Of a DNA stretch of 64,000 nucleotides, positions 11,625-40,899 are shown in pieces; position 1 is the stretch's first letter; each line of letters begins with the position of its first letter. The stretch spans positions 7,565 to 71,564 of the forward strand of contig JADFYH010000010.1 of NCBI GenBank assembly GCA_015233135.1, read 5' to 3'. Made by a program: the position numbers and the translations under genes. Below the pieces are notes generated by a model. That model was not told where the DNA came from. It ran no database searches and worked only from the letters and a program-made list of their open reading frames with translations. Origin of the DNA: Deltaproteobacteria bacterium. GTDB taxonomy: Bacteria > UBA10199 > JADFYH01.

Positions 11625-11677
11625 AACTATTAAATAGTGTAAAGGTCTTTATTTTAAAAGAGAGGACAGAAAAATTT

Positions 11678-12475: not shown

Positions 12476-12489
12476 GGGAGAATAAGGAA

Positions 12490-13257: not shown

Positions 13258-13523
13258 GCCCAGGACTGGTCATGAACATCGGGAGAGAAACCATTTATCT
13301 GGCGATGATGGTGCTCGCCCCTATTTTTGTCATGGGCTTTGCAGTGGGGATCACTGTGAGTTTTGCGCAGGCGATCTTGCAGGTACAGGATCCTGCGGTG
13401 GGCATGATTCCTAAGATGATCGCCATGGCGGTTTCCCTTTTAATTTTTGGAAGCTGGATGCTCACCCATTTGATGAATTATTTTAAGACTTATCTGGGAG
13501 ACTTTAGCAGTTTTATTCAATGA
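13254..13523 (+). CDS. fliQ: flagellar export apparatus protein FliQ
   Basis: 89 aa with two TM segments. ATG 13254 overlaps the fliP stop (ATGA). The ORF-track start at 13215 is an extension inside fliP. Confidence 0.9.
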   Translation: MSPGLVMNIGRETIYLAMMVLAPIFVMGFAVGITVSFAQAILQVQDPAVGMIPKMIAMAVSLLIFGSWMLTHLMNYFKTYLGDFSSFIQ

Positions 13524-13530
13524 GGCGACA

Positions 13531-14286: not shown

Positions 14287-14292
14287 GAAACT

Positions 14293-18831: not shown

Positions 18832-18841
18832 GGAGTAGATT

Positions 18842-19627
18842 TTGAATTCGGTGCAGGCTCAACAATCTCAACAATATGGGCAACATTCTCCGGTCTCGGA
18901 TGCCCTCTCTTCTTTTGAACAAGAAAAGGTGGTTGAGTTTCTTAGGCTCGTGAAATGGATCGTGAACCGAATTCTCAATCGCCTGCCCAGACATATCAAC
19001 GGCGATGATCTTATTCATAGTGGAATTTTGGGTTTGATTGATGCCGTCAAGCGTTTCAGTTGGGGAAGGCCCCGCGAACCAGAAGAATTCAAGGCCTATG
19101 CGGAATGCCGCATTCGGGGTCAAATCATGGATGAGCTTCGACGCATGGATGCCCTTCCGCGCTCTGCACGTGAAAAGGTAAATAAATTTAAAAGAACCTT
19201 TGAAACCCTGTGCCAACAGCTCAAACGGGAGCCCACTGAATATGAGATTTGTGCTGAACTCAAAGTCGATTTGGAGACTTGCCATCAAATGAGGGCAGAG
19301 ATGGCCTTTGGCAAAGAGATTCCTTACGATTCTTGTCAAAATCCTCAGTCGATCGAAGAAATGTTGCTGCAGACTTTGGATGATGTAGCCATTCGTACGC
19401 CGGAATCGCAGTTGCACATTGAACAGGTCAAAAAACTGCTCGGTGAGGAGATTGCAAATTTGGAAGAAAAAGAACGGCAGGTGGTGAGCTTGTATTATCT
19501 GGAAGAAATGACGCTCAAGGAAATTGGAGTCATCTTGTCGATTACGGAATCCAGGGTTTCCCAAATTCACGCGGCAGCCCTGGCAAAATTATTGAAGAGG
19601 TTACGATTGAGTCTGGATTTGGATTGA
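18842..19627 (+). CDS. fliA: flagellar sigma factor FliA (sigma-28)
   Basis: Sigma-70 family with region 2 (YAECRIRGQIMDELRR) and a region 4.2 HTH (LKEIGVILSITESRVSQIHAAAL). TTG start 6 nt after an AGGAG RBS. Confidence 0.85.
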   Translation: MNSVQAQQSQQYGQHSPVSDALSSFEQEKVVEFLRLVKWIVNRILNRLPRHINGDDLIHSGILGLIDAVKRFSWGRPREPEEFKAYAECRIRGQIMDELRRMDALPRSAREKVNKFKRTFETLCQQLKREPTEYEICAELKVDLETCHQMRAEMAFGKEIPYDSCQNPQSIEEMLLQTLDDVAIRTPESQLHIEQVKKLLGEEIANLEEKERQVVSLYYLEEMTLKEIGVILSITESRVSQIHAAALAKLLKRLRLSLDLD

Positions 19628-19654
19628 AAATTCAAAATTATTTTTGGAGAAAAA

Positions 19655-21136
19655 ATGAATCTTGCAGTAAAAAAAACAGGCCCCACGCTGGCGCTTTGCA
19701 TGATCGTTAAAAACGAAGAGGCCTGGTTGCGTGCTTGTTTGCAAAGCGTTCAGGGCCTCGTCGACGAAATGGTCATTGTCGATACGGGCTCTAGCGATGC
19801 CACGGTAGAAATCGCGAAATCTTTTGGGGCGCGCATGATCTCTCACGTCTGGAAGAATGATTTTTCCGAGGCACGCAACGTTTCTTTAGCGCACGCGAGC
19901 AGCGACTGGATCCTCGTTCTCGACGCCGATGAAGCCATTTCTAGGCAAGATCATGATCCAATCCGACAACTCCTTCTGCATCCTCAGAAGCCTATCATTA
20001 CACTGATCCAGACCAGCTATTGCCTCGACTCGAACACCTGTGGTTGGAGGCCAAACCAGCTTCAAGTGCCGGAAGCAAAAGGCTATCCCGGTTATATGGA
20101 TTCTTCTCTGGCTCGACTTTTTCCGAGAGATCCTCAAATCCGTTTTCAGGGAGAAATCCACGAACATGCACGACATGAAAAACAGGAGTATCCTCAAATC
20201 AATGTTCCCCTGCGGATTCATCACTATGGAAAATATAATTCTCAGGAGGTCTTAAGGAAAAAAGATGAATTGTATTTGGGCATCACCGAGGAGAAATATA
20301 GAAAAGCCTCGGACAATGCCCATGTGTGTTATGAAATGGCCGCTCAGTATTGGCGTATGGGAGAGGTGGAAAAGGCCAAAGAAGTTCTTCAAAAGGCACT
20401 GAAGATTGACCCCAAATATGTGCGACTCTGGTTGGTCTGGGGTGGAATTCTGCATCAGGAAAAAAAATATGCTGAGGCGGCAAAGGCCTATGCCCAAGTG
20501 ATGGAATTGGAACCGAGTAATCCGACCCCTTATCTTTATTTGCCCACCATTCTGGTTGAGATGAAAAATTTTGTGTTGGCCCAAGAGATTTTGAATGAGG
20601 GCCGTCAAAAGATAGGCGATCATCCAGGTTTTTATTTGAACGAAGGAAGCGTAAAACAATCTTTAGGGAAACACAAAGAGGCGCTTTTGTCTTTTAGTAA
20701 GGCCCTGACCTTGAATCCGGATGAAAGTATTGCCTGGTTAAATCAGGGAGTCTCGGAGCTTTATCTGGGATTTTTTGCACAAGCTGAAAAAAGTTTTGAG
20801 AAGGCCGAACAATATTCTGGAACCCGTTTTGAGGCCAACAGACGTCTGGTACATCTTTATTTTAAAACAGCCCAATTGGAAAAGGCTGCCCTGGCATTAA
20901 AAAAAGCCAAGGAGGAGCAGTCTGAGCACCCTGAAATTTTAGTGAATGAAGTCGTGTTGCTCACGGAGCAGAAGCAATGGACTGGGCTTGTAGAAAAAAT
21001 AGAAGTACTGCAGGAACGGCCCGATCTGAGCCACGCACAGCAGCTCCTTCTTAAAAAATGTTCATCCTTAATTCCCTCTCCCCAATTTGTTGGAGAGACA
21101 ACATTACACTCGTTAGAAAGGAGTAATACTCTATGA
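19655..21136 (+). CDS. family-2 glycosyltransferase fused to C-terminal TPR repeats
   Basis: N-terminal GT-A fold motifs (LCMIVKNEE; VIVDTGSSD; LVLDADE, a DxD). The C-terminal roughly 270 aa consist of TPR-like repeats. Confidence 0.7.
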   Translation: MNLAVKKTGPTLALCMIVKNEEAWLRACLQSVQGLVDEMVIVDTGSSDATVEIAKSFGARMISHVWKNDFSEARNVSLAHASSDWILVLDADEAISRQDHDPIRQLLLHPQKPIITLIQTSYCLDSNTCGWRPNQLQVPEAKGYPGYMDSSLARLFPRDPQIRFQGEIHEHARHEKQEYPQINVPLRIHHYGKYNSQEVLRKKDELYLGITEEKYRKASDNAHVCYEMAAQYWRMGEVEKAKEVLQKALKIDPKYVRLWLVWGGILHQEKKYAEAAKAYAQVMELEPSNPTPYLYLPTILVEMKNFVLAQEILNEGRQKIGDHPGFYLNEGSVKQSLGKHKEALLSFSKALTLNPDESIAWLNQGVSELYLGFFAQAEKSFEKAEQYSGTRFEANRRLVHLYFKTAQLEKAALALKKAKEEQSEHPEILVNEVVLLTEQKQWTGLVEKIEVLQERPDLSHAQQLLLKKCSSLIPSPQFVGETTLHSLERSNTL

Positions 21137-22020
21137 TTTCTTCAAATTCCTTAGCGACAGGTGAGGTCTTAGGAAAAAGTTATGGTTTTCAAGTGAGGCC
21201 TGCTGTGAGTGCCCGTGATTCTATTCAAGATTTGGTGGCACAAGGTAAGATTGTCGGAGAATGGAATGAAAATTTCAAAATTTATGCCTTGCCCGAAATG
21301 CTGAAACAGAGGCCTCCCAAATGGATAAAAGAGGAGCCTTTTAAAGGGGTATTGCAGGTAGACGCCATTAAAAATATCTGGCAGGCCATGGATTATTTTG
21401 GCGAAGGAGAGCTGGATGTTTTGATTACTCCGGAGAATTCATTCCTCTTTCCCCAAGAGGGCAGAAGCCTCCTTGAGGGCATTCGGGGCATTCTGGAAAA
21501 CAGGAAGGATCCGACTACAGGGGCACCCACACTGGGAACAGATTTTAATTTCGAATCGGACGATCCCTTTTTAAATAATCTGCAGGGGAAATTATTGACC
21601 CTGAAAGGAAATATTTCGGAGGCAGGTAAGGCCTTTGGGAAGGCCCTTGCCTTGTTGCCCGAATACAGTGAGCCCTACGCAAATTTGGGAACCTTGCTCT
21701 GGCAACTGGGTCAGCAAAAGGAGGCCTTTGTTCTTTTTGTGGAGGCCCTGCTGCGCAATCCCTATAATGTTGCGGCACAGCTGAATTTTTTTGATGCCGG
21801 AAGGGAGACGGAAAATTTTGATGGGATGATTAAAGTAGTCGAAAAAATTCTGGAAATGGATCCAGAGTGTCTGGAATTTTATCCCATCCTGGCTTTTTCT
21901 TATCACCGTTCGGGGCAAGCGGGTAAGGCCATCGATATCCTCAACAATTTTTTGGCCAAGTACCCTCAGGAAGAAGAGGCCCGGCTTTTACTGGAACATA
22001 TCAAATCTCATTTGCAGTAA
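21133..22020 (+). CDS. TPR-repeat protein, unknown N-terminal domain
   Basis: 295 aa with TPR-like repeats in the C-terminal half (AGKAFGKALALLPEYSEPYANLGTLLWQLGQQKEA). ATGA overlap with the upstream GT2-TPR gene. Confidence 0.5.
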   Translation: MISSNSLATGEVLGKSYGFQVRPAVSARDSIQDLVAQGKIVGEWNENFKIYALPEMLKQRPPKWIKEEPFKGVLQVDAIKNIWQAMDYFGEGELDVLITPENSFLFPQEGRSLLEGIRGILENRKDPTTGAPTLGTDFNFESDDPFLNNLQGKLLTLKGNISEAGKAFGKALALLPEYSEPYANLGTLLWQLGQQKEAFVLFVEALLRNPYNVAAQLNFFDAGRETENFDGMIKVVEKILEMDPECLEFYPILAFSYHRSGQAGKAIDILNNFLAKYPQEEEARLLLEHIKSHLQ

Positions 22021-22037
22021 AAAGGTAGATCAAAAAA

Positions 22038-23963
22038 ATGAATTTCTTCGAAAAAAACTTTGCCGTCCTCGAAACCACCCATCCCAAACTGGCTCAAAAA
22101 GTAAGGGAAATGAAATATTCACCCGAGAACCTGGTTGAAGTTTCTCCAGGCGTTTTTGATTTCAAAGATGCCCAAGGAAAACTTCTTTATCAAGGGCAAC
22201 CCCTACTCAAAGCAGAAGAATATTTAAAAAAAGTGAATCTCACTTACCCAAAGTTTGTCGTCTTTTATGGTTTGGGTTTGGGTTATTCTTTCCAGGAATT
22301 TCAAAAACAATTTTCACAAAAATTTGAAATAGCAATTGTGGTTGAAAAATCTCTTACTCTTTTTCGTCATTCGCTTGAAGTAACCGATTGGACAGAGATT
22401 CTCACTTCGCAAAAATTGCTTTTGTTGGTGGATGAAGAACTCGAGGCGGTACAGGAAAAACTTAAATCTTGTTTTTCGGATGGAATTTTTTTGACCTTTG
22501 TTAAGGCAATGACCCCAATTCATGAGGAGGTATCCTTGGTTTGGGAGGGCAAGGGGAACTATTACGTTTCAGTAGCTCAGTGTATAAAAGAGCAAATTGA
22601 ATACGTTTCTGAATTCATGGTTGGAGATTGGGAAGACAATTACCATGGTTTCACGAATGTTGTGAATAATGTTTTTCATGCCTATCAGGTTCCTTCTTTT
22701 ACTTCCCTAGTGGAACGGTTTCAAAAAATTCCTGGCATTGTGGTATCCACAGGGCCTTCCTTGAATCATTCACTAGAATGGTTGAAAAAGGTACAGAACA
22801 AGGCCGTGATCGCTTGTGCCGATTCAGCTCTACGTATTTTACTCAAGCATGGGATTACGCCTCATATAGTTGCCTGCCTTGAAAGAACTCAATGTACCAT
22901 AAAATATTTCGAAGAATTTAATGATTTAAATCGAACTTTTTTACTAAGTGATTTGAGTATTTGGCCCGAGACTTATCAAAAGTATAGCGGGCCCAAGATT
23001 AATTATTTTCGCCCTGTAGGCCAGCAGCGTTGGTTCTTTCCAAAAGAAATAATGAGAAATGCAGGGACTTCAGTGGCGCACGAGATTTTTTTGGCTCTTT
23101 ATTACATGGGCTGTTCTCCTATTTTTTTGGTGGGTCAGGATTTAGCCTATGATCCTCACACTCATGCGGGTCATGCTCAAGGGATTTCCTCCTTTTTGGA
23201 GGATTATGACAAAAGTGAGTTGCAATACATTAAACATCATTATGTCTCCGCTGGGAAAAATGAGGTGTGGGTGGAAGGTAATAATGGAAAACCTATCTTG
23301 ACTAGCCCCTATTGGAATAATTTCAGGAATTTTTTTGAGAATATTTTCAAAAAAGAAGGCGTGGATTGCTACAATGTAATTCCTCAAGAATACGGGGCCC
23401 GCTTGAAGAATGCAAAATGGCTGGATCCTCGTCAGGCCTTGGAATTTTTCAGTGAAGAGAGGGATATCTTTGCCCTTCTGAAGGAGGGGCTAGACCAATC
23501 TTCTGTGGAAGAGAAAGAAGTCTTTTTGACGAAAATGAAAATGAAATTCCAGACTGCCTTGGGGTATTTAAGAAATTTTCAAGAGATTACTTTGGACGTT
23601 TTGGATAGTATTTCCATTTTTCAACATCATTTTGATTTGCAGCTTTTCGGATTTGAAACTTATCGCCCCCTTTTAACTAGATTAGAAAAGATGATTAATG
23701 AGTTGGAATACATTCCTGAAAATCTTGAAGATGATTTTTTTGGCAATTTTCTTTATCCACAAATTCAGGGGGAATTAATTCCTTTTTATCAAGGAATAGA
23801 AGCTGCACTCAAATTGCCAGAACAATCTACCTTTCGTATTCGGGAGCAAATTAAAATGCTGAGGTTTTGGTTGAAGACGGTGCATTATGCTTGTTCAAGG
23901 ATGGAAAATTTTATTCTTAAAAATTTAGCAGAAGAAAATCGGAAAATCCTAGGGACTCTATGA
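22038..23963 (+). CDS. maf: motility accessory factor (Maf/DUF115) putative flagellin glycosyltransferase, paralogue 1
   Basis: 641 aa with the Maf core motifs GIVVSTGPSLN, ACADSALRILLKHGITPH, FLVGQDLAY, EGNNGKPI and NVIPQEYGARL. Confidence 0.75.
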   Translation: MNFFEKNFAVLETTHPKLAQKVREMKYSPENLVEVSPGVFDFKDAQGKLLYQGQPLLKAEEYLKKVNLTYPKFVVFYGLGLGYSFQEFQKQFSQKFEIAIVVEKSLTLFRHSLEVTDWTEILTSQKLLLLVDEELEAVQEKLKSCFSDGIFLTFVKAMTPIHEEVSLVWEGKGNYYVSVAQCIKEQIEYVSEFMVGDWEDNYHGFTNVVNNVFHAYQVPSFTSLVERFQKIPGIVVSTGPSLNHSLEWLKKVQNKAVIACADSALRILLKHGITPHIVACLERTQCTIKYFEEFNDLNRTFLLSDLSIWPETYQKYSGPKINYFRPVGQQRWFFPKEIMRNAGTSVAHEIFLALYYMGCSPIFLVGQDLAYDPHTHAGHAQGISSFLEDYDKSELQYIKHHYVSAGKNEVWVEGNNGKPILTSPYWNNFRNFFENIFKKEGVDCYNVIPQEYGARLKNAKWLDPRQALEFFSEERDIFALLKEGLDQSSVEEKEVFLTKMKMKFQTALGYLRNFQEITLDVLDSISIFQHHFDLQLFGFETYRPLLTRLEKMINELEYIPENLEDDFFGNFLYPQIQGELIPFYQGIEAALKLPEQSTFRIREQIKMLRFWLKTVHYACSRMENFILKNLAEENRKILGTL

Positions 23964-25258
23964 CCCCTTATAAGATCGCCTTTTTTCATGTAGGCGCTGC
24001 CTGTCACGGTCGCAGCAAAAAAATAAAACCCCTGGGGGGGACTGAGTCTGCGATGATTGACATGGCAGAGGCGCTTGCTCAGCGTGGGCACGAAGTGCAT
24101 GTCTTTAGCCTGTTGGATGATGTAGGCCCTTACGAGGGAGTACAGTACCATTCTTTTGAAGCATTCGAATCTTTTTCTCTCAATAAAAACTGGGATGTTT
24201 TTATTGGAATCCGGCAGCTTCTTCCTCTGCTGGTTAAGCGTTGGGCAGCCTATCAAATTTATTTCACTCCAGACGCCTACGATCAGCCCTTTTTTAAACA
24301 GGCCTTACAAGTAGATTGCAGCTTGGATAGTCAAAATTGGAAAGTGGGGCTCTACTCTTTGAAGTTTGTCAGTCACTGGGTCGATAAAATTTATTGTGTA
24401 GGCCAGTGGCAGGCCCAGAGCTTGGCTCAGGCCTTTCAAGTTCCCCTTTCCAAATTTTTTGTGACGGGCAATGGCATTTGGCCTCAGCTTTTTAAACCCC
24501 TTCCCTTTTCTGAAAGAAAAAAAAGAATTGTTTATGCCTCTACCCCTTCTCGAGGTTTGGAATATTTGCTCGATTATTTTCCCACTCTTCGCAGGGAGAA
24601 TCCTGGGTTGGAATGTTGGGTGATGAGTGGAATGCAACTCTATGGACTCAGCGCAGAGCAAGATCAGCAGCAGTATGCAGGGGTTTATCAAAAAGCAAAA
24701 CAAGAAGGAGTCCATCTTTTGGGCCCTGTATCCAAATCGGAACTCTATTCAATTTTTTCTCAAAGTCTGGCGATGGCCTACCCGAATACCTTTGCAGAAA
24801 CCTTTTGTATTGCTGTGTTAGAGGCGCAAGCCGCAGGATTGCCAGTGGTGACCACTCGCCTGGCTGCCTTGGAGGAACGGATTGAAGAAGCGAAAGAAGG
24901 TTTTTTGATTTCAGGACATCCCTCTCAAGAAACTTACCAGGAAGATTTTATTTCAAAAATGAACCAGGTCCTTCAAAGTCCATCTTTGTGGAATCCTTTG
25001 AGTGCACAGGCTCTAGAAAAGAGCCGGCGGTTTTCTTATGAAATTTTAGCTCAGGCTTGGGAAAAAGATTTTGATCTTTTTTTTCAAGACCCAGAAAAAA
25101 ATAAAAGCCCCAGGCCAGATTTGTTTTTTCCCAAGCAAGAATTTCTGACAGTGAAGGGAGAGGATCAAAAAACAGCGCAGATTGAAATCTCTCCACAAAT
25201 CATTCAACAGGAACTTAACAAATATTTGAATGCCTTTAATTTTAAGAGTTTGATGTAA
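23960..25258 (+). CDS. family-4 (GT-B) glycosyltransferase
   Basis: 432 aa. N-terminal GGTES motif and a C-terminal EX7E-type region (ETFCIAVLEAQAAGLPVV). ATGA overlap with maf paralogue 1. Confidence 0.7.
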   Translation: MTPYKIAFFHVGAACHGRSKKIKPLGGTESAMIDMAEALAQRGHEVHVFSLLDDVGPYEGVQYHSFEAFESFSLNKNWDVFIGIRQLLPLLVKRWAAYQIYFTPDAYDQPFFKQALQVDCSLDSQNWKVGLYSLKFVSHWVDKIYCVGQWQAQSLAQAFQVPLSKFFVTGNGIWPQLFKPLPFSERKKRIVYASTPSRGLEYLLDYFPTLRRENPGLECWVMSGMQLYGLSAEQDQQQYAGVYQKAKQEGVHLLGPVSKSELYSIFSQSLAMAYPNTFAETFCIAVLEAQAAGLPVVTTRLAALEERIEEAKEGFLISGHPSQETYQEDFISKMNQVLQSPSLWNPLSAQALEKSRRFSYEILAQAWEKDFDLFFQDPEKNKSPRPDLFFPKQEFLTVKGEDQKTAQIEISPQIIQQELNKYLNAFNFKSLM

Positions 25259-25260
25259 CA

Positions 25261-25287
25261 TAGAGACAGGTTTTAAACCCGTCTCTA
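25261..25287 (+). terminator. possible intrinsic terminator after the GT4 gene
   Basis: tagagacagg-ttttaaa-cccgtctcta hairpin with one mismatch, starting 3 nt after the stop. The tail (cttgtcttgtcattt) is only moderately T-rich. Confidence 0.3.
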
Positions 25288-25303
25288 CTTGTCTTGTCAT
25301 TTA

Positions 25304-25373
25304 CATGGATTCGACTGGGCTCACCATGTCCCACTTGGTTCCAATTGGGACATGGTGAGGCCCTCGAACCATG
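25304..25373. other. long imperfect inverted repeat with a perfect 14-bp core stem
   Basis: ctcaccatgtccca (25320-25333) pairs with tgggacatggtgag (25346-25359) around a 12-nt loop. The outer arms catggattcga and tcgaaccatg extend it. Confidence 0.7.
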
Positions 25374-25414
25374 TAATGGATTTGTTAAATTTATTCCTGT
25401 GCTGAGTATAAATT

Positions 25415-27238
25415 ATGACCTTCATTCAAAACAATATTCAAAAATTTCTTGAGCGTTACCCCCAAGAAAAAGAGCTGGCTTCACTCTTGAGTTCCTTGCC
25501 ACCCAATCCACAAAAAGTTTTGAATCCGAGTGCTCATCTTTCTCTAGATGCTGAACTCAAGAAGAGTCGCATGCTTATTTTTCTAGGTTTAGGGGATGCA
25601 CTTTGTTTCAAGAGACTTTTTCCCATCCTCAAAGATCAAAATTTTATTTTTGTGATTTTTGAGCGATCGCTCGAGGTGCTTGCCAAACTTTGGAGTGAGG
25701 GAGATTGGACAGAATTTTTGGAACATCCCCGTACTTTCTGGTTTCTGGGAAAAAAAACTTCTTATACAAGAGAGTTCCAAGAGGCCTTTTCTAACATCTC
25801 GTTGGTGAATTCCATTGGGGCCTGCACCTTTGTAAAATTACCGGATGAGGCCTTGGAGTCCAATCTCTATGATCAGCTTTTGGATCTTTTTATTGAGGCA
25901 GGAAGTCAGCAAATTCAGAATGTAGCTGCCTTTCCGGAAGATGCCTATCGGGGGATGATGAATTATGTGCGCAATACTTCTAAAATTGCCAGCATTCCCC
26001 GTCTAGAAGAGTTTAAAGATTATTACCGAGGGATGTCTGGTATTGTCGTTTCAGCGGGGCCTTCCTTAAAGTTCTGTTTGCCCCTTCTCAAAAAACTTCA
26101 AAAACACGCCCTGGTGGTTTGTGTTGATGCTGTCTATAAGCTTCTGCTCTCACAAGGAATTATCCCTCATTTTGTGACTTCTATGGAACGAGCGGCCACC
26201 TGTGAGTTTTTTGAAGGTACTCCGCTCCAGTCTCAAAGTTGCTTAATTACGCTGCCTCTCCTTCAACCAGAAAGTCTGGAGGCCTTTCAAGGCCCCCAAG
26301 TGTTTTTACCTAGTGTAGGGAATGGGCACGAATTTTTTTACCCGGAACACAAGGGAAATGATATCGGTCGTTCCTCGGCCACCTTGGCCTATGCGGCGCT
26401 GGCCTTGCTGGGTTGTGATTCCATTTATTTGATGGGACAAGACCTGGCCTTTGATCGCTTTTCAGAGGCTTCCCACGTCTCTGGAGTTTGGAATTTGGTG
26501 AGAGAAGAGGGCGAATGTATTCATCAAAAGTTAAAGCAGGAAAAAATTGAGAATAATCCCAATTGGATAGAAGGAAACAATGGACAGCCTATTTTAAGCC
26601 GGGATTGTTGGAAGAGTTTCAAAGAAGATTTTGTACGTCTGGGTCAAAAGTATTCCTGCAAGACCTTTAATATTATTCCACGGGACTATGGGGCTAAAAT
26701 TCCGGGTGTTTCACAAATTGAGCCTGAAGAGGCCTTGTTGCATTTCGACCTTTCTCAAGATGCCTGGGCCAAAGATATTGTTCCCTTGCTTCAAATTCCC
26801 TTGGAACAAAAAAAGAAAAAGGAAGCAGAGACAACAGAGACGATGCAGAGGGCCATTTCTTTTTTTGATGAGACTTTTGTTCCCACGATTTTAGAAATGA
26901 ACCAGGCCCTTTCGCTTTATTATCAATACAACTTTCCTATGGTGAATGGTGAGGAATTAGAAAAGAAGTACGAATCTCTCTTTAATGAGTTGGAAAAAGC
27001 AGAAAATCTTCTGCTTAAAAAAGATTCTTTAGTGGTCAACGGTTTGATGCTTCCTTTCTTTCAATACCTCATGCCAGTCATGTGCATTGAAATCTCAAAA
27101 GTTCGTAATGAACCCATCCCTTATGTGGAAAAGGTTCAACAAATTGTAAACAAATTGTTTGGGCATTATAAAGATTTACTCTATTGGGGTATGAGAGTGA
27201 ATGATCTTCTCAAAAGAAGATTGAGTGGGAATATCTGA
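25415..27238 (+). CDS. maf: Maf/DUF115 family protein, divergent paralogue 2
   Basis: 607 aa with the core motifs GIVVSAGPSL, VCVDAVYKLLLSQGIIPH, YLMGQDLAFD, IEGNNGQPI and NIIPRDYGAKIPG. Confidence 0.7.
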   Translation: MTFIQNNIQKFLERYPQEKELASLLSSLPPNPQKVLNPSAHLSLDAELKKSRMLIFLGLGDALCFKRLFPILKDQNFIFVIFERSLEVLAKLWSEGDWTEFLEHPRTFWFLGKKTSYTREFQEAFSNISLVNSIGACTFVKLPDEALESNLYDQLLDLFIEAGSQQIQNVAAFPEDAYRGMMNYVRNTSKIASIPRLEEFKDYYRGMSGIVVSAGPSLKFCLPLLKKLQKHALVVCVDAVYKLLLSQGIIPHFVTSMERAATCEFFEGTPLQSQSCLITLPLLQPESLEAFQGPQVFLPSVGNGHEFFYPEHKGNDIGRSSATLAYAALALLGCDSIYLMGQDLAFDRFSEASHVSGVWNLVREEGECIHQKLKQEKIENNPNWIEGNNGQPILSRDCWKSFKEDFVRLGQKYSCKTFNIIPRDYGAKIPGVSQIEPEEALLHFDLSQDAWAKDIVPLLQIPLEQKKKKEAETTETMQRAISFFDETFVPTILEMNQALSLYYQYNFPMVNGEELEKKYESLFNELEKAENLLLKKDSLVVNGLMLPFFQYLMPVMCIEISKVRNEPIPYVEKVQQIVNKLFGHYKDLLYWGMRVNDLLKRRLSGNI

Positions 27239-27245
27239 ATCAAAT

Positions 27246-29165
27246 ATGAGCTACTTCGAAAAAAACTTTGCTGTCCTTGCAACCACTCATCCCAAACTAG
27301 CTCAAAAAATAAGTGGCATTAAATATTTGTCCAAGAACTTGGTCGAAATTTCTCCAGGCGTTTTTGATCTCAAAGATGAGCAAGGAAGGCTCTTTTATCA
27401 GGGGAAGCCTTTAATAAAGGCTGAAGAGTATTTAAAAAAAGTGAATCTCGCTTTTCCTGAGTTTGTTGTTTTTTATGGTTTGGGTCTGGGTTATTCTTTC
27501 CAGAAATTCTGTAAACAATGCACACAATTTAAAATAGCTTTTGTGGTAGAAAAATCTCTGGATCTTTTTCGCTATTCTCTGGAAGTGACCGATTGGACAG
27601 AGATTCTCGCTTCGAAAAAATTAGTTTTGTTAGTGGACGCAGAACTTGAGGAGTTGAAGAACAGTATTCTGACTATTCTTGGGGATGGAAGTTTTCTTGT
27701 CTTTGTCAAGGCAATGACCACGATTCATGAGGAGGTCTCTTTGGTCTGGGGCAACAAGGGGGATTATTACGTTTCTGTGGCCCAGTGTATGAAGGAGCAA
27801 ATTGAATACGTTTCTCGATTCTTCATTGGAGAGGGGGAGGACAATTTTCAAGGTTTTATGAATGTTGTGAATAATGTTTTTCATGCCTACCAGGTTCCTT
27901 CTTTTACTGCTTTGCTGGAACGTTTTCAGAAGTTTCCAGGAATTGTGGTGTCTACAGGGCCTTCGTTGAATTATTCGCTGGAATGGCTGAAAAAGGTACA
28001 GAATAAGGCTGTGATTGCCTGCGCCGATTCAGCCCTGCGCATTTTACTCAAACACGGGATTACCCCGCATCTGGTGGGTTCTCTTGAACGAATCTATTGC
28101 ACCAGAAAATATTTCGAAGAATTTAACGATTTAAGTCAAACTTTTTTACTTAGCGATTTGAGTGTCTGGCCTGAAACCTATCAAAAGTATAGCGGGCCCA
28201 AAATTAATTTTTTCCGTACCGTAGGCCAGCAGCGTTGGTTTTTTCCAAAAGAAATATTAAGGAATGCAGGCAATTCGGTGGCACACGAACTTTTTTTGGC
28301 TCTTTATTATATGGGTTGCTCTCCCATTTTTCTAGTGGGGCAGGATTTAGCTTATGATCCTCATAACCATGCAGGTCATGCCCAGGGGGCTTCCTCTTTT
28401 CTGGAGGACTATGACAAACAAGAGCTGGAAGGAATCCAATTTCATTATGTCTCTACTGGAAAGAAAGAGGTGTGGGTGGAGGGGAATAGTGGAAAACCTA
28501 TTCTGAGCAGTCCCACTTGGAATGGTTTTAGGCTTTTTTTTGAAACCCTTCTCAAAAAAGAGGGGGTGGATTGCTACAATGTGATTCCCCAGGAATATGG
28601 GGCTCGCTTGAAGAATGCAAAATGGCTGGATCCTCATCAGGCCTTGGAATTTTTCAGTGAAGAGAGGGATGTCTTTGCTATTCTGAAAGAGAGTCTTGAA
28701 CAATCTCCTGTGGAAGAGAAAGAAGTATTTCTTGAAAAGATAAAAATGAGATTTCAAGTTGCCCTGGGGTATCTAAAAAATTCTCAGGAAATCACTTTGG
28801 ATATTTTGGATAGTATTTCTATTTTCCAGCATCGTTTTGATTTGCAACTTTTTGGTTTGGAAACTTATCGCCCACTTTTACTTCGATTGGAGCAGACGAT
28901 CAATGAGTTGGAAAAGGTCCCGGAGAGTTTCGAAGATGATTTTTTTGGCAACTTTCTTCTTCCACAAATTCAGGGCGAATTAATTCCCTTTTATCAAGGG
29001 ATAGAAGCTGCGCTGAAACTGCCGGAGCAGTCGATATTTCGTATTCGGGAGCAAATCAAAATGCTGAGAACTTGGCTGAAGACGGTGCATTATGCCTGTG
29101 CAAGGATGGAGAATTTTATTCTTAAAAATTTGTCGGAAGAAAATCAGACGCTCTTGGAAAATTGA
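27246..29165 (+). CDS. maf: Maf/DUF115 family protein, paralogue 3 (tandem copy)
   Basis: ATG 27246 (MSYFEKNFAVL) aligns with the N-termini of paralogues 1 and 4. The ORF-track GTG at 27225 lies inside the tail of the upstream gene. The core motifs match paralogue 1. Confidence 0.75.
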   Translation: MSYFEKNFAVLATTHPKLAQKISGIKYLSKNLVEISPGVFDLKDEQGRLFYQGKPLIKAEEYLKKVNLAFPEFVVFYGLGLGYSFQKFCKQCTQFKIAFVVEKSLDLFRYSLEVTDWTEILASKKLVLLVDAELEELKNSILTILGDGSFLVFVKAMTTIHEEVSLVWGNKGDYYVSVAQCMKEQIEYVSRFFIGEGEDNFQGFMNVVNNVFHAYQVPSFTALLERFQKFPGIVVSTGPSLNYSLEWLKKVQNKAVIACADSALRILLKHGITPHLVGSLERIYCTRKYFEEFNDLSQTFLLSDLSVWPETYQKYSGPKINFFRTVGQQRWFFPKEILRNAGNSVAHELFLALYYMGCSPIFLVGQDLAYDPHNHAGHAQGASSFLEDYDKQELEGIQFHYVSTGKKEVWVEGNSGKPILSSPTWNGFRLFFETLLKKEGVDCYNVIPQEYGARLKNAKWLDPHQALEFFSEERDVFAILKESLEQSPVEEKEVFLEKIKMRFQVALGYLKNSQEITLDILDSISIFQHRFDLQLFGLETYRPLLLRLEQTINELEKVPESFEDDFFGNFLLPQIQGELIPFYQGIEAALKLPEQSIFRIREQIKMLRTWLKTVHYACARMENFILKNLSEENQTLLEN

Positions 29166-29170
29166 TATGG

Positions 29171-29240
29171 CCCTTTATTGGAGTGTGAGAGAAGAGTGAT
29201 CTTCTCAAAAGGAGATTGAGTGAGAAGATCTGAGCTAAAT
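29171..29240 (+). pseudogene. relic of the 3' end of a maf2-type gene (duplication scar)
   Basis: gccctttattggagtgtgagag...gatcttctcaaaaggagattgagtgagaagatctga parallels 27176-27238 (..LYWGMRVNDLLKRRLSGNI*). The frame is broken. Confidence 0.7.
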
Positions 29241-31169
29241 ATGAACTATTTCGAAAAAAACTTTGCTGTCCTTGAAACCACTCATCCCAAACTAGCCCAA
29301 AAAATAAGGGAAATAAAATACGTTCCCGAGCAATTGGTTGAAGTTTCTCCAGGCATTTTTGACCTCAAAGATGCCCAAGGGAAACTTCTTTATCAAGGGC
29401 AGCCCCTGCTAAAAGCAGAAGAGTATTTAAAAAAGACAAATCTTATTTCTCCGAAGTTTGTGGTTTTTTATGGTCTGGGTCTGGGGTATTCTTTCCAGCA
29501 ATTCTGCAAAAAATTCTCACAGAAATTTGAAGCAGCGATTGTGCTGGAACGGTCTCTTACTCTCTTTCGCTATTCGCTGGAACTAACTGATTGGACAGAG
29601 ATCCTTACTTCTCAAAAATTGCTTTTGTTGGTGGATGAGGAACTTGAAGCGCTGCAGGAAAAGCTTCAAGCCTTTTTTGCAGATGGAAATATGCTTGTCT
29701 TTATCAAGGACATGCCCCTGATTTATGAGGAGGTCTCTTTGGTCTGGGACAAGAAGGAAGATTATTATGTCTCTGTGGCCCAGTGTATGAAGGAACAAAT
29801 TGAACAGGTTTCTGAATTCATGGTTGGAGATTGGGAAGACAATTATCAAGGTTTTATGAATGTTGTAAATAATGTCTTTCATGCCCACCAGGTTCCTTCT
29901 TTCACTTGTTTACTGGAACGTTTCCGGGACTTTCCAGGTATTGTGGTGTCGACAGGGCCCTCGTTGAATCATTCGCTGGAATGGTTGAAAAAGGTACAGA
30001 ACAAGGCTGTGATTGCCTGTGCAGATTCAGCCCTGCGCATCTTACTCCAGCATGGGATTACCCCACATCTAGTTGGTTGTTTAGAGCGAATCAGTTGTAC
30101 CAGAAAATATTTCGAAGAATTTAACGATTTAAGGCGAACTTTTTTACTTAGCGATTTGAGCGTCTGGCCCGAAACCTATCAAAAGTATAGCGGGCCCAAA
30201 ATTAATTTTTTTCGTCCCTTAGGTCAACAGGGCTGGTTTTTCCCCAAAGAAATCTTAAGAAACGCAGGTAGTTCGGTGGCGCATGAACTTTTTTTTGTTC
30301 TTTGTTATATGGGTTGTTCTTCCGTTTTTCTTGTGGGTCAGGATTTGGCCTACGATCCTTACACTCACGCAGGTCACGCTCAAGGGGCTTCCTCCTTCCA
30401 GGAGGACTGTGACAAAAAAGAGCTGCAACACATTCAACAGCATTATGTTTCCGCTGGAAGCAAAGAGGTATGGGTGGAAGGTAATAATGAAAAACTCATT
30501 TTAAGTAGCCCAATTTGGAATAGTTTCAGGTTTTTTTTTGAAAGTATTCTCAAAAAAGAGGGGGTGGGGATCCATTGTTACAATGTAATTCCGAAGGAAT
30601 ACGGAGCTCGTTTAAAAAATGCAAAGTGGCTGGATCCTGATCAGGCCTTGGAATTTTTTAGTGAAGAAAGAGATGTATTTGCTCTTCTGAAAGAGAGTAT
30701 CGAACAATCTCCTGTAGAAGAGAAAGAAGTGTTTTTGGAAAAAATGAAAATGAAATTCCGGACAGCCCTGGGGTATCTAAGAAATTTTCAGGAAATCACT
30801 TTGGATATTTTGGATAGCATTTCTATTTTCCAGCATCGTTTTGATTTGCAACTTTTTGGTCTGGAAACTTATCGCCCACTTTTGCTTCGATTGGAGCAGA
30901 CGATCAATGAGTTGGAAAATATTCCTGAAAATCTCGAGGATAATTTCTTTGGCAATTTTCTTTTTCCACAAATTCAGGGCGAACTAATTCCCTTTTATCA
31001 AGGGATAGAAGCTGCGTTAAAACTGCCAGAACAGTCGACATTTCGTATTCGGGAACAAATCAAAATGCTGAGAACTTGGCTGAAGACGGTGCATTATGCC
31101 TGTGCAAGGATGGAGAATTTTATTCTTAAAAATTTGTCGGAAGAAAATCAGACACTTTTTGAAAGTTGA
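29241..31169 (+). CDS. maf: Maf/DUF115 family protein, paralogue 4 (tandem copy)
   Basis: ATG 29241 (MNYFEKNFAVL). The ORF-track GTG at 29220 lies in a relic of a maf 3' end. The C-terminal ~170 aa are nearly identical to paralogue 3. Confidence 0.75.
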   Translation: MNYFEKNFAVLETTHPKLAQKIREIKYVPEQLVEVSPGIFDLKDAQGKLLYQGQPLLKAEEYLKKTNLISPKFVVFYGLGLGYSFQQFCKKFSQKFEAAIVLERSLTLFRYSLELTDWTEILTSQKLLLLVDEELEALQEKLQAFFADGNMLVFIKDMPLIYEEVSLVWDKKEDYYVSVAQCMKEQIEQVSEFMVGDWEDNYQGFMNVVNNVFHAHQVPSFTCLLERFRDFPGIVVSTGPSLNHSLEWLKKVQNKAVIACADSALRILLQHGITPHLVGCLERISCTRKYFEEFNDLRRTFLLSDLSVWPETYQKYSGPKINFFRPLGQQGWFFPKEILRNAGSSVAHELFFVLCYMGCSSVFLVGQDLAYDPYTHAGHAQGASSFQEDCDKKELQHIQQHYVSAGSKEVWVEGNNEKLILSSPIWNSFRFFFESILKKEGVGIHCYNVIPKEYGARLKNAKWLDPDQALEFFSEERDVFALLKESIEQSPVEEKEVFLEKMKMKFRTALGYLRNFQEITLDILDSISIFQHRFDLQLFGLETYRPLLLRLEQTINELENIPENLEDNFFGNFLFPQIQGELIPFYQGIEAALKLPEQSTFRIREQIKMLRTWLKTVHYACARMENFILKNLSEENQTLFES

Positions 31170-31191
31170 GTAGGTTACGAAAGAAGTCTAA

Positions 31192-31899
31192 TCAGGCGAC
31201 CATTTTCCTTCCCAACATAAACGCTTCGGCTGCACAAAATCCGGCCATAGCTCCCCGATATTTTGCCAAGGCCTCGATGGCTTCATAAGATCGTAAATGA
31301 GGCCAGGCCCTCATCTCCAGGTGGTAGGCTTCCAGTGCTTTCATTTTTAACTCAAGAGTAGAAGTGATATCTTCAAACCATTGGGCCAAAAAAGCAGTTT
31401 GGGTGCTTTGAATTTGGTAGTCTGTACTAGAAGGGGTTTCAAAAAATAATATTTGTTGAATGGATGATCCGGGCAAGGCACGAGCCGCAGTGATGGCAGC
31501 TTGATGAGTAATTTGGTGGTCGATGTTGATATCATAGCCATGGTGGGTCCACAGAATATTAGGTTTTATTTTTTTTATGATAGGTTCAATTTTTTGAATA
31601 ATTTTTAATAGAGGAATTTTATCAAGTTGGTTGTCTGGAAAGTTTAAAAAAATGGGAATCTCTGTCCCCAAAATTTTAGCTGCATTTTTGGCTGCTTCTT
31701 TTAAATTTTTCAATTCGGGATTTTTTTTTGAGTTTCTATTTAACCCCTTGGTTAAGCCTCTGGAGGTTGCTCCCTCAGCTAAAATGACAGGATAAACTTC
31801 AGCTCCCTGCCGTGAATATTTTGCAATCGTTCCCCCACAACCGAGTATTTCGTCATCGGGATGGGAGGCAATAATAAGTATTATTTCTTTTTGGGTCAT
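31192..31899 (-). CDS. PIG-L/LmbE family N-acetyl-sugar deacetylase
   Basis: Carries the ASHPDDEILGCGGT zinc-binding motif and downstream HHGYDINIDH. Confidence 0.75.
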   Translation of the reverse strand: MTQKEIILIIASHPDDEILGCGGTIAKYSRQGAEVYPVILAEGATSRGLTKGLNRNSKKNPELKNLKEAAKNAAKILGTEIPIFLNFPDNQLDKIPLLKIIQKIEPIIKKIKPNILWTHHGYDINIDHQITHQAAITAARALPGSSIQQILFFETPSSTDYQIQSTQTAFLAQWFEDITSTLELKMKALEAYHLEMRAWPHLRSYEAIEALAKYRGAMAGFCAAEAFMLGRKMVA

Positions 31900-31913
31900 G
31901 AATCACCATTTCA

Positions 31914-32579
31914 TTAAATTTTTGTCGCAACCAAATCCCAAGTGGCAAGAGTGAAGGATTGATCGGGGATGAGTTGTTTTTTTATTTTGTGAGCCAAGTA
32001 TTCAATGTGAAAAATTTTAAACAAATCTTTTAGGTGTTGTACATCAGAAAAGTGTACGCGCCCCAATTTGGCAAACTGACCTTTTGTGAAGTGGCTTCGT
32101 GTATAAATATCTTCCTCTGGAAGCCCTTTGGGATATTCACTGTGTTCGGTTGAAAACCAATCTACCCCGATAAACTTCCCGTTAACATCGAGCAAGTCGT
32201 ATAATCTTTTTATGGTAGATAAAATTGCTGCAGTGGCGTTGTGAGTCAGAGCCCCTCTGTCAATAATGAGTTGAAACGGCCCCTCGAAAGGAAGCGGTTG
32301 AGTAAAATCTCCTGCTAAAATTTTCCCCTTGAGTTGGGGGTATTGCAGCTTTAATTTTTCTACTATGTGTGAACTCCCCTCAATTGCATAATAATCGGCT
32401 TCAAGATGCATGAATAATGGAATATTTGCCCCGGCCCCACAACCTATTTCCAAAACTCTAAAACTCTTTTTCAGAGACGAAGCATTGCGCATTACTAGGG
32501 ATACCAAATCGGACCAAGGGAAAATACTGAGGTGTGTGTTTTCTTGATAGCGTTCATTCCATTCATTTGAAAAAGTCAT
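31914..32579 (-). CDS. class I SAM-dependent methyltransferase
   Basis: Motif I VLEIGCGAGAN. 221 aa. Confidence 0.7.
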   Translation of the reverse strand: MTFSNEWNERYQENTHLSIFPWSDLVSLVMRNASSLKKSFRVLEIGCGAGANIPLFMHLEADYYAIEGSSHIVEKLKLQYPQLKGKILAGDFTQPLPFEGPFQLIIDRGALTHNATAAILSTIKRLYDLLDVNGKFIGVDWFSTEHSEYPKGLPEEDIYTRSHFTKGQFAKLGRVHFSDVQHLKDLFKIFHIEYLAHKIKKQLIPDQSFTLATWDLVATKI

Positions 32580-32588
32580 ATTTGTTCC

Positions 32589-33266
32589 TTAATTTAAAGA
32601 TGAAAATTCAGTGTTTGAAACATTCATCCAGGCATCTAAAATACTCAAGCAAGGTATAAAATTACCGTAGAGTTGAGGGTATTTCGTAGGTAAAAAATTT
32701 TGATATTCCACTTGGATCCCTTGCTCTTTAAATTTTTTTTCTTCCAGATAATTCTTACCCAAAGCCCCCGATAAGTAATGCGTGGCTGAAAAATGTTGGC
32801 AAAGATTCAGAATCAGATCCGATTTATCTCCCGAAATCGAAATATTGCTGCTTCGCACTAAGTGAGACTGAATTTGAAGCTCTTGAAGCCAAAAAAGCAA
32901 GTGTTCAAAACATAAATCCGAAAGGAAATCGAAGTTCCTTTGATACAGCTGTTGCAGTTTTGGATAGTTTGCTTCAAAAAAAGGAGCTTTGCGATAGTTT
33001 TGCTGAATAGTTTTTAAATGTTTATCTTTCCAAGCTTGAGTGGAATCAATACGGGTTTCGCTCAGATTAGATTGGGTATGGCCTTTCACAAGTACAGGAA
33101 TCGTTAGCCACAAGGCCCCTTGAGGAGTTTTGATTTTGTTGCGATTGATGAAACTGTTTTTTTCAAATTGGACGGTATCTAAAAAAACAAAGACATCACT
33201 ACGCTTAATTTTTTCCAGATAGCCCAGCCAAGGCAGATAAGCAGGTTGGTGCACCGAGATCCTCAT
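32589..33266 (-). CDS. WbqC-like family protein
   Basis: The N-terminus MRISVHQPAYLPWLGYLEKI is typical of WbqC-like proteins found in glycan clusters. ATGA overlap with the aminotransferase gene. Confidence 0.6.
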   Translation of the reverse strand: MRISVHQPAYLPWLGYLEKIKRSDVFVFLDTVQFEKNSFINRNKIKTPQGALWLTIPVLVKGHTQSNLSETRIDSTQAWKDKHLKTIQQNYRKAPFFEANYPKLQQLYQRNFDFLSDLCFEHLLFWLQELQIQSHLVRSSNISISGDKSDLILNLCQHFSATHYLSGALGKNYLEEKKFKEQGIQVEYQNFLPTKYPQLYGNFIPCLSILDAWMNVSNTEFSSLN

Positions 33267-34288
33267 GATTGGAGTGCTCCTAAAATTTGCTCAAGCTCCC
33301 GATCAGATAAAGAGGGGTAGAGCGGTAAAGAAAGAGTATTTTGGCACAGCTCATTTGCGTTTGGAAATAAGTGTGCAGGGCCTAGCAATTCTTGTTGTTC
33401 AATAGGAATAATGGTTTTTATTCCGAGTGAAAATAGTTTTTCTTTCCATTGTATTGCATCCTTTGTTTTCCAGACAGCGCGGTATCTTACCGAACTTTGT
33501 CCAGACTGAGGGAGTTCTTTCCCAATTAAATCGAGTCCTAAGCTTGAATATTTCTGAAAGATTTCTTCCCTTTTTTTAAGAAAATCTGGGAGTCTTTCGA
33601 GTTGAGCTCTTCCTATGGCGGCCTGCAATTCAGTCATCTGGAAATTAAAGCGATCTTGATTGTCATTTTTATTGTCAAAATAAATGTAATCTCGAAGGGT
33701 GTTGATGTACTTTTTATTCTTGGAAACAATCATCCCTCCCTGGCCACCACTGGTCATCAGTTTGGTGGCGTAGAAAGAAAAAATTCCAATTTCGCCGATG
33801 CTGCCTAATGCCTTGTCCTGTAGAGATGCTCCCAATGCCTGAGCACAATCTTCGATGATAAGTTTGGAGCTCACTTTCTGAAAGTCACAGGGGATCCCAT
33901 ATAAATGAGGGATAATTACAATTTCAGCAGCCGATTTTTCAGCTTGCTCCAAGTCAATATGAGGGGAGCTGGGAGCGGTATCGAGTATTACAGCTTCAGC
34001 ATTAGCGAGACGCACAGCCTGTTTTAGAGAAGAACAAACATAAGTGGGAAAAGAAACTTTTTTACCTTTTGCCTCTAGAACCAAGAGAGCTAGATAAAGA
34101 GCTGCGGATCCGCTGGAAACAGCTAGGGCGTGTCCTTCTGGGAGCTTTAAAAATTCACAAAATTCTTTTTCAAATAGAGGAATTTCTTCTCCACCGCAAA
34201 GCAGCTGACTTTCTAAAACTCTTCGAGAGGTCTCTATTTCGATTTTTCCAAGAGTCGGTCGATTGTGTGGGATAATTGTTTTATTCAT
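33263..34288 (-). CDS. DegT/DnrJ/EryC1/StrS-family sugar aminotransferase (PseC/LegC-like)
   Basis: SGSAALYLAL motif and the PLP-lysine region FSFYATKLMTSGGQGGMIV. 341 aa. Confidence 0.75.
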   Translation of the reverse strand: MNKTIIPHNRPTLGKIEIETSRRVLESQLLCGGEEIPLFEKEFCEFLKLPEGHALAVSSGSAALYLALLVLEAKGKKVSFPTYVCSSLKQAVRLANAEAVILDTAPSSPHIDLEQAEKSAAEIVIIPHLYGIPCDFQKVSSKLIIEDCAQALGASLQDKALGSIGEIGIFSFYATKLMTSGGQGGMIVSKNKKYINTLRDYIYFDNKNDNQDRFNFQMTELQAAIGRAQLERLPDFLKKREEIFQKYSSLGLDLIGKELPQSGQSSVRYRAVWKTKDAIQWKEKLFSLGIKTIIPIEQQELLGPAHLFPNANELCQNTLSLPLYPSLSDRELEQILGALQS

Positions 34289-34722
34289 TTTTTCTTGTAA
34301 TAAGCAGGATAAACTTTTGCAGGATTGCCTATCACCAGAGAATAGGGAGGAATGGTTTCCTGTCTGACCACCGTTCCTGCTGCAATGACGCTATGATGGC
34401 CAATTTTGGCCCCCCCTAAAATTGCACAGTGGCTACCCACGAAAACATTTTTTCCTAACTCAATTTTTTTTCTCAAAATTTTATTCTTTTTCCCGATACA
34501 TAAAAGGTGTGAATCTGCAGCATTGATTGTGACAAAAGAGGCGATATCGCAATAATTGCCTATTTTCACTTGAGTTCCCTTTGCATTCACCTCTGAAAAT
34601 GCCCCAATGTACACCCCTTTTCCAACCTTCGGTGTTCCTTTGATTAATACCAAGGGATGAAAAGGGTTGGGCAGAAAATCAATCATCTTTGCAAATAAAT
34701 TTTTAAAGAGATTCAGTTCCAT
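34285..34722 (-). CDS. hexapeptide-repeat (LbH) acetyltransferase
   Basis: 145 aa with a left-handed beta-helix repeat pattern (IGNYCDIASFVTINAADSH...VFVGSHCAILGGAKIGHHSVIAAGTVV). Confidence 0.7.
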   Translation of the reverse strand: MELNLFKNLFAKMIDFLPNPFHPLVLIKGTPKVGKGVYIGAFSEVNAKGTQVKIGNYCDIASFVTINAADSHLLCIGKKNKILRKKIELGKNVFVGSHCAILGGAKIGHHSVIAAGTVVRQETIPPYSLVIGNPAKVYPAYYKKK

Positions 34723-35770: not shown

Positions 35771-35774
35771 TTTC

Positions 35775-39744: not shown

Positions 39745-39746
39745 TC

Positions 39747-40898: not shown

Positions 40899-40899
40899 G

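Follow-up and report, generated by a model that had tools for sequence, protein, structure and literature searches.

How do three neighbouring genes for flagellin glycosyltransferases come to resemble one another in different combinations along their length? The question is raised by a 64,000-nucleotide (nt) stretch of contig JADFYH010000010.1 from an uncultured organism catalogued as a deltaproteobacterium (the whole stretch is referred to below as the window), which carries five genes for proteins of the motility accessory factor (Maf) family. Three of these, MafA (22038-23963, 641 amino acids), MafC (27246-29165, 639 amino acids) and MafD (29241-31169, 642 amino acids), all on the plus strand, are close relatives and are called copies A, C and D here; the other two are MafB (25415-27238, plus strand, 607 amino acids) and MafE (40964-42853, minus strand, 629 amino acids). 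A first-pass annotation had listed the five genes, with coordinates and lengths that are all correct, each being an intact open reading frame (ORF) whose product matches PF01973. It had also described a three-way peptide mosaic in A, C and D, read the mosaic as repeated segmental exchange and proposed that the family could be a recombination-driven generator of specificity. The answer reached here is narrower, namely that in-place tandem copying, followed by gene conversion between C and D, a probable tract shared by A and C, and divergence of individual proteins, is what probably gave the mosaic, a reading that we hold with moderate confidence.

At the level of protein, the mosaic is as described. 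Protein identity among copies A, C and D is 80-83%, DNA identity with the flanks included is 75-79%, and the copies differ at about 450-500 positions. Every peptide quoted in the first-pass annotation is present, and the informative sites (A=C 128, A=D 134 and C=D 189) follow the proposed pattern and are clustered along the gene by type rather than randomly placed (runs test p<1e-4; binned chi-square p=2e-4). Counted as amino acids, A=D sites prevail in codons 1-160 (28, with 12 A=C and 8 C=D), A=C sites in codons 321-400 (10, with 3 A=D and 5 C=D) and C=D sites in codons 481-640 (16, with 10 A=D and 3 A=C). Identities by domain give the same picture: in the N-terminal domain protein identity is 81% for A-D, 72% for A-C and 69% for C-D (78% for C-D in DNA), in the core it is 86% for A-C, 85% for C-D and 82% for A-D (C-D DNA 84%), and in the C-terminal bundle it is 90% for C-D, 85% for A-D and 81% for A-C (C-D DNA 91%). 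The last of these figures tempers the statement that the final ~170 residues of C and D are almost identical even in DNA, which is true of two sub-tracts within the region and an overstatement for the region as a whole.

Replacements specific to one lineage can mimic a three-way protein mosaic, a caution that extends beyond this locus, and silent sites together with an outgroup are needed to separate them from exchange. Identity raised at silent sites beyond chance, the mark of gene conversion, is found for the C-D pair, weakly for A-C and not for A-D. The C-D signal lies in the C-terminal helical domain, in a block at 28728-29159 of MafC and 30732-31163 of MafD (both plus strand), where silent informative sites number 32 for C=D, 8 for A=C and 9 for A=D, compared with 59, 55 and 39 elsewhere (odds ratio 3.0, p=0.0016). 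Tabulated by gene quarter and type, the silent sites are likewise uneven (chi-square 21.1, p=0.0018), and the C-D synonymous difference per degenerate codon is 0.12-0.19 in the C-terminal block; the other blocks extend from 0.17 to 0.43, and most of them lie at 0.29-0.43 (heterogeneity p=0.033). Within the block stand the two sub-tracts, a near-identical one of 129 nt (C 28785-28913, D 30789-30917) and an exact match of 98 nt (C 29052-29149, D 31056-31153) inside genes that are ~79% identical; the longest exact matches of the other pairs are 38 nt for A-D and 34 nt for A-C. A run of 29 consecutive degenerate codons is unchanged between C and D (p=0.019), and a GENECONV-like search returned a C-D fragment of 13 concordant sites (p<2e-4). 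The number of synonymous substitutions per synonymous site (dS) on the A branch is 0.77-0.80 in codons 161-320 and 481-642 and 0.35-0.38 in codons 1-160 and 321-480. These results support C-D exchange in the C-terminal domain, in several conversion tracts of different ages.

Between A and C the signal is confined to one candidate tract of about 105 nt (A 23367-23471, C 28572-28676, plus strand) with 94% identity in a 100-nt window. Over alignment codons 458-481 the two copies share 21 degenerate codons in a row without change (p=0.037), and in codons 456-478 the silent sites fall 8 to A=C, 0 to A=D and 1 to C=D, which gives weak support to A-C exchange in one short tract. The peptide VDCYNVIPQEYG, one of those by which the first-pass annotation had defined the agreement of A and C in the catalytic core, is located in and beside this tract. 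Around the GQDLAYD motif, the core agreement is mostly a matter of replacements in D: six of the eight lineage-specific changes there are D-derived, and the D-derived changes include A353V, P361S, I362V, L387Q, Y390C, G417E (in the EGNNG motif) and P419L, together with a two-residue insertion in D.

For the N-terminal agreement of A and D, exchange is not the explanation. Silent sites in codons 1-160 are flat (A=C 16, A=D 12, C=D 14), and the A-D pair has neither silent-site heterogeneity (p=0.45) nor an unusual identical run (p=0.56). When the changes in these codons are polarised with the single nearest outgroup, the protein P0004 (about 55% identical), 19 of 23 are C-derived, with 1 assigned to A, 3 to D and none shared-derived in A and D; at sites polarised with at least two outgroups the counts are 10 for C, 4 for A and 5 for D, which agrees in direction, on too few sites for significance. 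Over the same codons, nonsynonymous substitutions per nonsynonymous site (dN) reach 0.121 on the C branch (95% interval 0.085-0.162), against 0.049 for A and 0.066 for D, and the dN/dS ratio (omega) is 0.47 against 0.14-0.16 for the other two, at a C-branch dS of 0.255 that is the lowest of the three. The N-terminal agreement of A and D is thus the result of extra replacements in C and not of A-D exchange. Import of the N-terminal domain of C from a divergent donor was considered and rejected, since the C-branch dS there (0.255) is not raised.

The arrangement of the copies bears a scar of how they arose. Between MafC and MafD lies a spacer of 75 nt (29166-29240, plus strand), 60 nt of which can be aligned to the 20 codons that end MafB (27179-27238), at the cost of 8 mismatches and a single 1-nt indel (shuffle p<5e-4); it is a frameshifted copy of the MafB 3' end, 13% diverged. 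The start of the duplicated unit is therefore represented at the junction, as in-place tandem duplication leaves it, and since a MafB tail stands before C as well as before D, copying took place in situ, from a unit that included the 3' end of MafB. The divergence of the relic accords with the young C-D blocks and makes it too young to match the N-terminal block next to it (p<=0.002). The 13 nt that follow the MafC stop codon (29166-29178, TATGGCCCTTTAT) also match, at 11 of 13 positions (p ~0.017), the junction between the MafA stop and the start of the next gene, which encodes a glycosyltransferase of family 4 (GT4; 23957-23969, TATGACCCCTTAT). Because of this match and of the 5,208 nt that separate the start of A from the start of C, the results suggest, as a lead rather than a result, that the original unit was [Maf-GT4-MafB], of ~5.2 kb, and that its second GT4-MafB pair was later deleted.

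Where the first-pass annotation saw a recombination-driven generator, the copies prove to be old, constrained and free of switching tracts. Pairwise dS and dN are 0.80 and 0.111 for A-C, 0.91 and 0.097 for A-D, and 0.53 and 0.101 for C-D; with dN at about 0.10 throughout, pairwise omega is 0.11-0.19. A, C and D are old duplicates, each held under purifying selection. The five maf genes contain no G/C homopolymer of at least 7 bases, the only one nearby being a G7 at 24034-24040 within the GT4 gene, and so they have nothing like the hypermutable G/C tract of Campylobacter-type phase variation. The 98-nt tract without divergence and the deletion scar indicate that such events have happened and do not indicate how often, and nothing points to high-frequency switching or to an active generator of diversity.

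Outside relatives place these events within the lineage of this organism. Homologues were sought among 5.8 billion proteins, and GTDB representative genomes were scanned with a single protein. The nearest homologue of A, C and D outside the genome is P0004, 53-55% identical, followed by proteins at 41% and 39% in the search of 5.8 billion proteins, and the single-protein scan of GTDB genomes returned no closer relative. The related loci come from metagenome-assembled genomes labelled 'Deltaproteobacteria bacterium' or 'Myxococcota bacterium'. By a neighbour-joining tree and an identity matrix, the Mafs fall into three ancient subfamilies with ~24% mutual identity: an A-type, made up of A, C and D and the first Maf of each of three related loci (L001, L002 and L003), a B-type, made up of MafB and the second Maf of L001, and an E-type, in which MafE groups with Mafs of L002 and L003 in the tree. 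MafB itself is ~24% identical to A, C and D. Gene order in L001 is fliA, a glycosyltransferase family 2 gene with tetratricopeptide repeats (GT2-TPR), a TPR gene, an A-type Maf, GT4 and a B-type Maf, and in L002 two Mafs are followed by GT4; the position of MafA is thus occupied by a Maf in both loci, a GT4 gene is kept beside the A-type Maf in both, and the MafB orthologue of L001 (50% identical) stands at the equivalent position. Downstream of MafB, the slot of C and D is filled in the nearest relative by a gene whose N-terminus is different. The triplication that gave A, C and D is peculiar to the lineage of this organism. In the wider lineage, arrays of Mafs in tandem and duplications of independent origin are common and recurrent: L003 has four Mafs in tandem (9902-17563), in pairs that are 64% and 44% identical, and L014 has four Maf genes within ~13 kb (8400-21457). 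No conversion or low-divergence tract was found in the 64%-identical pair of L003, in which silent sites are saturated.

Taken together, these observations are consistent with the following course of events. The ancestral order, kept in relatives, is A-type Maf, GT4, B-type Maf, and the A-type gene was copied twice, in place, downstream of MafB in this lineage. All three A-type copies have long been kept under purifying selection. Non-reciprocal exchange, or gene conversion, acting mainly between the adjacent C and D, would have homogenised their C-terminal helical domain; it probably also covered codons 150-320 and the spacer upstream, and at least one of its tracts appears to be very recent. 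One short tract was probably exchanged between A and C, with weaker support than for C-D. Alongside exchange, copy-specific amino-acid divergence altered the N-terminal Rossmann-like domain of C and the surroundings of the catalytic motifs in D.

Several points weigh against this reading. A 3SEQ-like test that takes in all sites picks out D as a child of A and C (p<=2e-4), but on synonymous sites only it gives p>0.12 for every triplet, and the synonymous chi-square over 8 bins gives p=0.19; the quarter boundaries behind the significant result (p=0.0018) were picked after inspection of 80-codon bins. Exchange is consequently argued from the enrichment in the C-terminal domain, from the identical runs and from the age of the relic. 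With three close sequences and silent sites near saturation (the proportion of synonymous differences, pS, being about 0.5), power and resolution are low, and neither the direction nor the order of the exchange events can be resolved. The acceleration of C cannot be assigned to positive as opposed to relaxed selection, because an omega of 0.47, being below 1, does not separate the two. No relative closer than 53-55% protein identity was found among the 5.8 billion proteins or in the GTDB representative genomes, and the 64-kb window holds no flagellin gene. An alternative is a history without any exchange, in which the copies were duplicated in the order (A,(C,D)) and differences of rate between domains and lineages mimic a mosaic. 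Most of the all-site signal is indeed nonsynonymous, the 3SEQ-like p<=2e-4 becoming non-significant when only synonymous sites are used, and the N-terminal and core patterns are accounted for by C-derived and D-derived changes. Such a history is nevertheless unlikely, given that the silent sites are themselves heterogeneous (p=0.0018, p=0.0016 and p=0.033), that an exact match of 98 nt sits inside ~79%-identical genes, that dS on the A branch is halved in two of four quarters, and that the spacer relic is significantly younger than the N-terminal block beside it.

If exchange is accepted, its partners need not have been resident. The divergent blocks could have come in by homologous recombination with alleles of other strains or species, or with a lost paralogue, and over codons 321-480 the three copies are about equally distant from one another (summed dS 0.83-1.07), which is hard to obtain from resident donors if the C/D duplication is as young as the relic suggests; the GC content of the island (0.38-0.41), lower than that of the flanking flagellar genes, points the same way. 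The young tracts, however, join resident copies (C-D and A-C), and no external donor candidate closer than 55% identity was found in the databases searched, so that import seems improbable. There is even less to recommend the proposal of the first-pass annotation in its strong form, an actively recombining cassette that goes on yielding chimeric Mafs or copy-number variants and thereby diversifies flagellar glycosylation in the population; the events in question would be C-D and A-C conversion and unequal crossing-over. High silent divergence (dS 0.53-0.91), purifying selection on every copy, the scarcity and shortness of the young tracts, the lack of an exchange signal for A-D, maf genes without homopolymeric tracts and the independent tandem pair of L003 without low-divergence tracts all speak against it, and it is improbable in spite of a 98-nt C-D tract with zero divergence, the standing of the copies as adjacent direct repeats, and the precedent of Campylobacter jejuni, where maf1 and maf4 are identical and Cj1319-1333 were lost from a recombination-prone region (PMC13130089; PMC6700657). 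Were it true, such a cassette would vary flagellar glycan patterns without phase-variable tracts. That the tandem copies or the mosaic were created by metagenome assembly, through collapse or expansion of repeats or mixing of strains, might be supposed of a contig that comes from an uncultured organism and has been seen only once. It is very improbable here: the copies have about 450-500 differing positions, each ORF is intact and has an omega well under 1, no exact repeat is longer than 98 nt, the C-D junction is a specific, diverged MafB relic and not a clean repeat join, and a swap of tails at an identical stretch would not yield the observed pattern of similarity. We retain in-place copying, conversion and copy-specific divergence as the likeliest account of the mosaic.

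The surroundings of the genes indicate what the proteins are for. PF01973, the MptE-like/Maf_flag10 (MAF_flag10, DUF115) catalytic domain, is matched by all five Mafs (E 1.5e-31 for MafB to 5.8e-43 for MafA), and PF20157, the Maf N-terminal domain, by A, C, D and E, with no match in MafB; the Pfam matches of MafC and MafD are those of the other A-type copies. Upstream, on the plus strand, lies a flagellar operon (fliF, fliG, fliH, fliI, fliK, flgD, flgE, fliL, a FliM/N-like gene, fliO, fliR, flhB, flhA, flhF and fliA), and fliA is followed by the GT2-TPR gene (19655), the TPR gene (21133) and MafA. The GT4 gene (23960-25258, plus strand; Pfam Glycos_transf_1 and Glyco_transf_4) overlaps the MafA stop codon at its start. 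Downstream, convergent with the Maf genes, is a minus-strand operon (31192-42853) with MafE at its far end; its donor-sugar genes (31192-40898, minus strand), recognised by NCBIfam and Pfam matches, encode a PIG-L-like deacetylase, a methyltransferase-like protein, WbqC, a PseC-like aminotransferase, an acetyltransferase, a NeuB-like synthase, PseI, a PseG-PseH fusion, WbuZ/HisF, HisH and the amidotransferase WbuX, of which WbuZ/HisF, HisH and WbuX form an acetamidino trio. With flagellar genes on one side and nonulosonic-acid genes (PseC-like, PseG/H, PseI, NeuB-like, WbuX, WbuZ and HisH) on the other, the Mafs have the linkage expected of the family, and the region constitutes an island for flagellin glycosylation, in an uncultured bacterium, with five predicted Maf-type flagellin nonulosonic-acid transferases. 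Two nonulosonate synthase genes are adjacent at 34703-36839, one NeuB-like (scoring under the NeuB cutoff) and the other a clear PseI. Because PseI sits beside this second synthase, the gene content suggests that the island makes at least two different nonulosonic acids, and we infer that these also occur as acetamidino or methylated derivatives.

Other features of the island deserve mention. GC content is 0.38-0.41 over the Maf and sugar-biosynthesis genes (~22000-36000) and 0.45-0.49 in the adjacent flagellar genes, which is consistent with a variable or horizontally exchanged island. The GT2-TPR protein and the separate TPR protein are encoded directly 5' of MafA (19655-22020), and both are kept in L001 and L002; the best NCBIfam match of the former is the SunS-family S-glycosyltransferase, below the family cutoff. 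In FlmG and in Shewanella Maf-1 it is TPR domains that bind flagellin, and by analogy the two proteins could be candidate acceptor-recognition partners of the Mafs. The GT4-MafB spacer (25259-25414, 156 nt) folds into a pair of strong hairpins, among them a long, nearly perfect inverted repeat at ~25300-25378, and its RNA has a minimum free energy of -71.7 kcal/mol (z=-8.2 relative to shuffles). Maf relics were sought in this spacer and not found; it has no Rfam match, and its motif has no second occurrence in the window. As the GT4 and B-type Maf genes of L001 abut with no spacer between them, it has the look of an insertion confined to this lineage, or of a regulatory or terminator element. 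Across 21-32 kb, promoter and terminator scans gave the same counts as shuffled sequence, and the Rfam scan gave only chance-level matches. Beside MafE, two ORFs (42906-43466, plus strand, 186 amino acids; 43454-45607, minus strand, 717 amino acids) have no Pfam or NCBIfam match.

Structure prediction agrees with the assignment of the Mafs and gives the mosaic its domain boundaries. An AlphaFold2 model of MafA (predicted local distance difference test score, pLDDT, 89.5) has three domains: a Rossmann-like N-terminal domain (residues ~1-165), followed by linker helices (166-224), a Maf_flag10 core (225-475) and a C-terminal helical bundle (476-641). Its top Foldseek match, over the full length, is 5MU5, the Maf of Magnetospirillum magneticum (E=3.6e-21), which is also matched in sequence by phmmer (E=6e-9). 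MafE has Pro at residue ~264, in the 'CADSAL' motif, where every other aligned Maf has Asp or Glu; the idea that MafE is catalytically dead for this reason was dropped, as 5MU5 has Gly at the same position. In published work on the three-domain structure of Maf, the C-terminal bundle has a weak resemblance to FliS and flagellin and is a proposed site of contact with flagellin, although the roles of the N- and C-terminal domains are still called unclear (PMC11339370). Judged from homology and gene context, each Maf probably transfers a cytidine monophosphate (CMP)-activated sugar of the pseudaminic (Pse) or legionaminic (Leg) type to Ser or Thr of flagellin in the cytoplasm, before export. In the case of Shewanella Maf-1 and Maf-2, division of labour between paralogous Mafs has been demonstrated (bioRxiv 10.1101/2023.12.03.569772); for those of C. 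jejuni it has been discussed (PMC13130089), and by analogy the five Mafs may split the work by donor sugar, acceptor site or both. C and D have a common C-terminal bundle and differ in the N-terminal domain, which is changed in C, and near the active site, which is changed in D; copies A, C and D, with C and D sharing the C-terminal domain, are probably subfunctionalised for donor sugar or acceptor site. With this shared C-terminal domain, the divergent N-terminal domain of C and the altered catalytic-motif residues of D, the three copies amount to a natural domain-swap series, and their expression could help to map the Maf domain that sets donor or acceptor specificity.

Among characterised Mafs, the closest structural parallel is that of M. 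magneticum AMB-1 (5MU5), which has the same Rossmann-like N-terminal domain, sialyltransferase-like Maf_flag10 core and C-terminal helical bundle but is only about 15% identical and is present in AMB-1 as a single copy. In Shewanella oneidensis, as here, paralogous Mafs flank Pse genes in a flagellar cluster, and glycosylation by Maf-1 and by Maf-2 takes place on different serines of one flagellin, a division that may be supposed for the present locus only by inference (bioRxiv 10.1101/2023.12.03.569772). The Shewanella proteins are a much more disparate pair, 21% similar, one with a TPR domain and the other dependent on the GlfM adaptor, whereas A, C and D share one architecture at 80% identity, and TPR and GT2-TPR are encoded here by separate genes upstream.

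Conversion between tandem bacterial paralogues, for example Campylobacter flaA and flaB, leaves short tracts of near-identity in diverged adjacent direct repeats. Compared with that type of conversion, homogenisation of C and D is partial and mostly old, and most of the gene diverges. No published report of gene conversion among maf genes was found in the literature searched, the nearest being the identity of maf1 and maf4 and the Cj1319-1333 deletion in C. jejuni. The maf paralogous family of that species (Cj1318) was described by Karlyshev et al. 2002, as cited in PMC13130089; strain NCTC 11168 has seven maf paralogues, of which maf1 and maf4 are identical (PMC13130089), and one laboratory isolate lost the 15 genes Cj1319-1333 of its flagellar glycosylation locus, a region called recombination-prone (PMC6700657). 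Common to both systems are a cluster of several Maf paralogues with Pse/Leg biosynthesis genes in a flagellar glycosylation locus and the homogenisation of paralogues, which in C. jejuni extends to identity. The differences are that the close copies described here are 80% identical rather than 100%, stand directly in tandem and belong to an unrelated uncultured lineage, that their identity to Campylobacter Mafs is about 28%, and that the maf genes of C. jejuni, unlike these, owe phase variation to homopolymeric G tracts. Campylobacter already provides examples of multi-copy maf families whose paralogues recombine, and the biology is in that sense not new; the present case is the same expansion and homogenisation of paralogues in a distant uncultured lineage, without phase-variable tracts.

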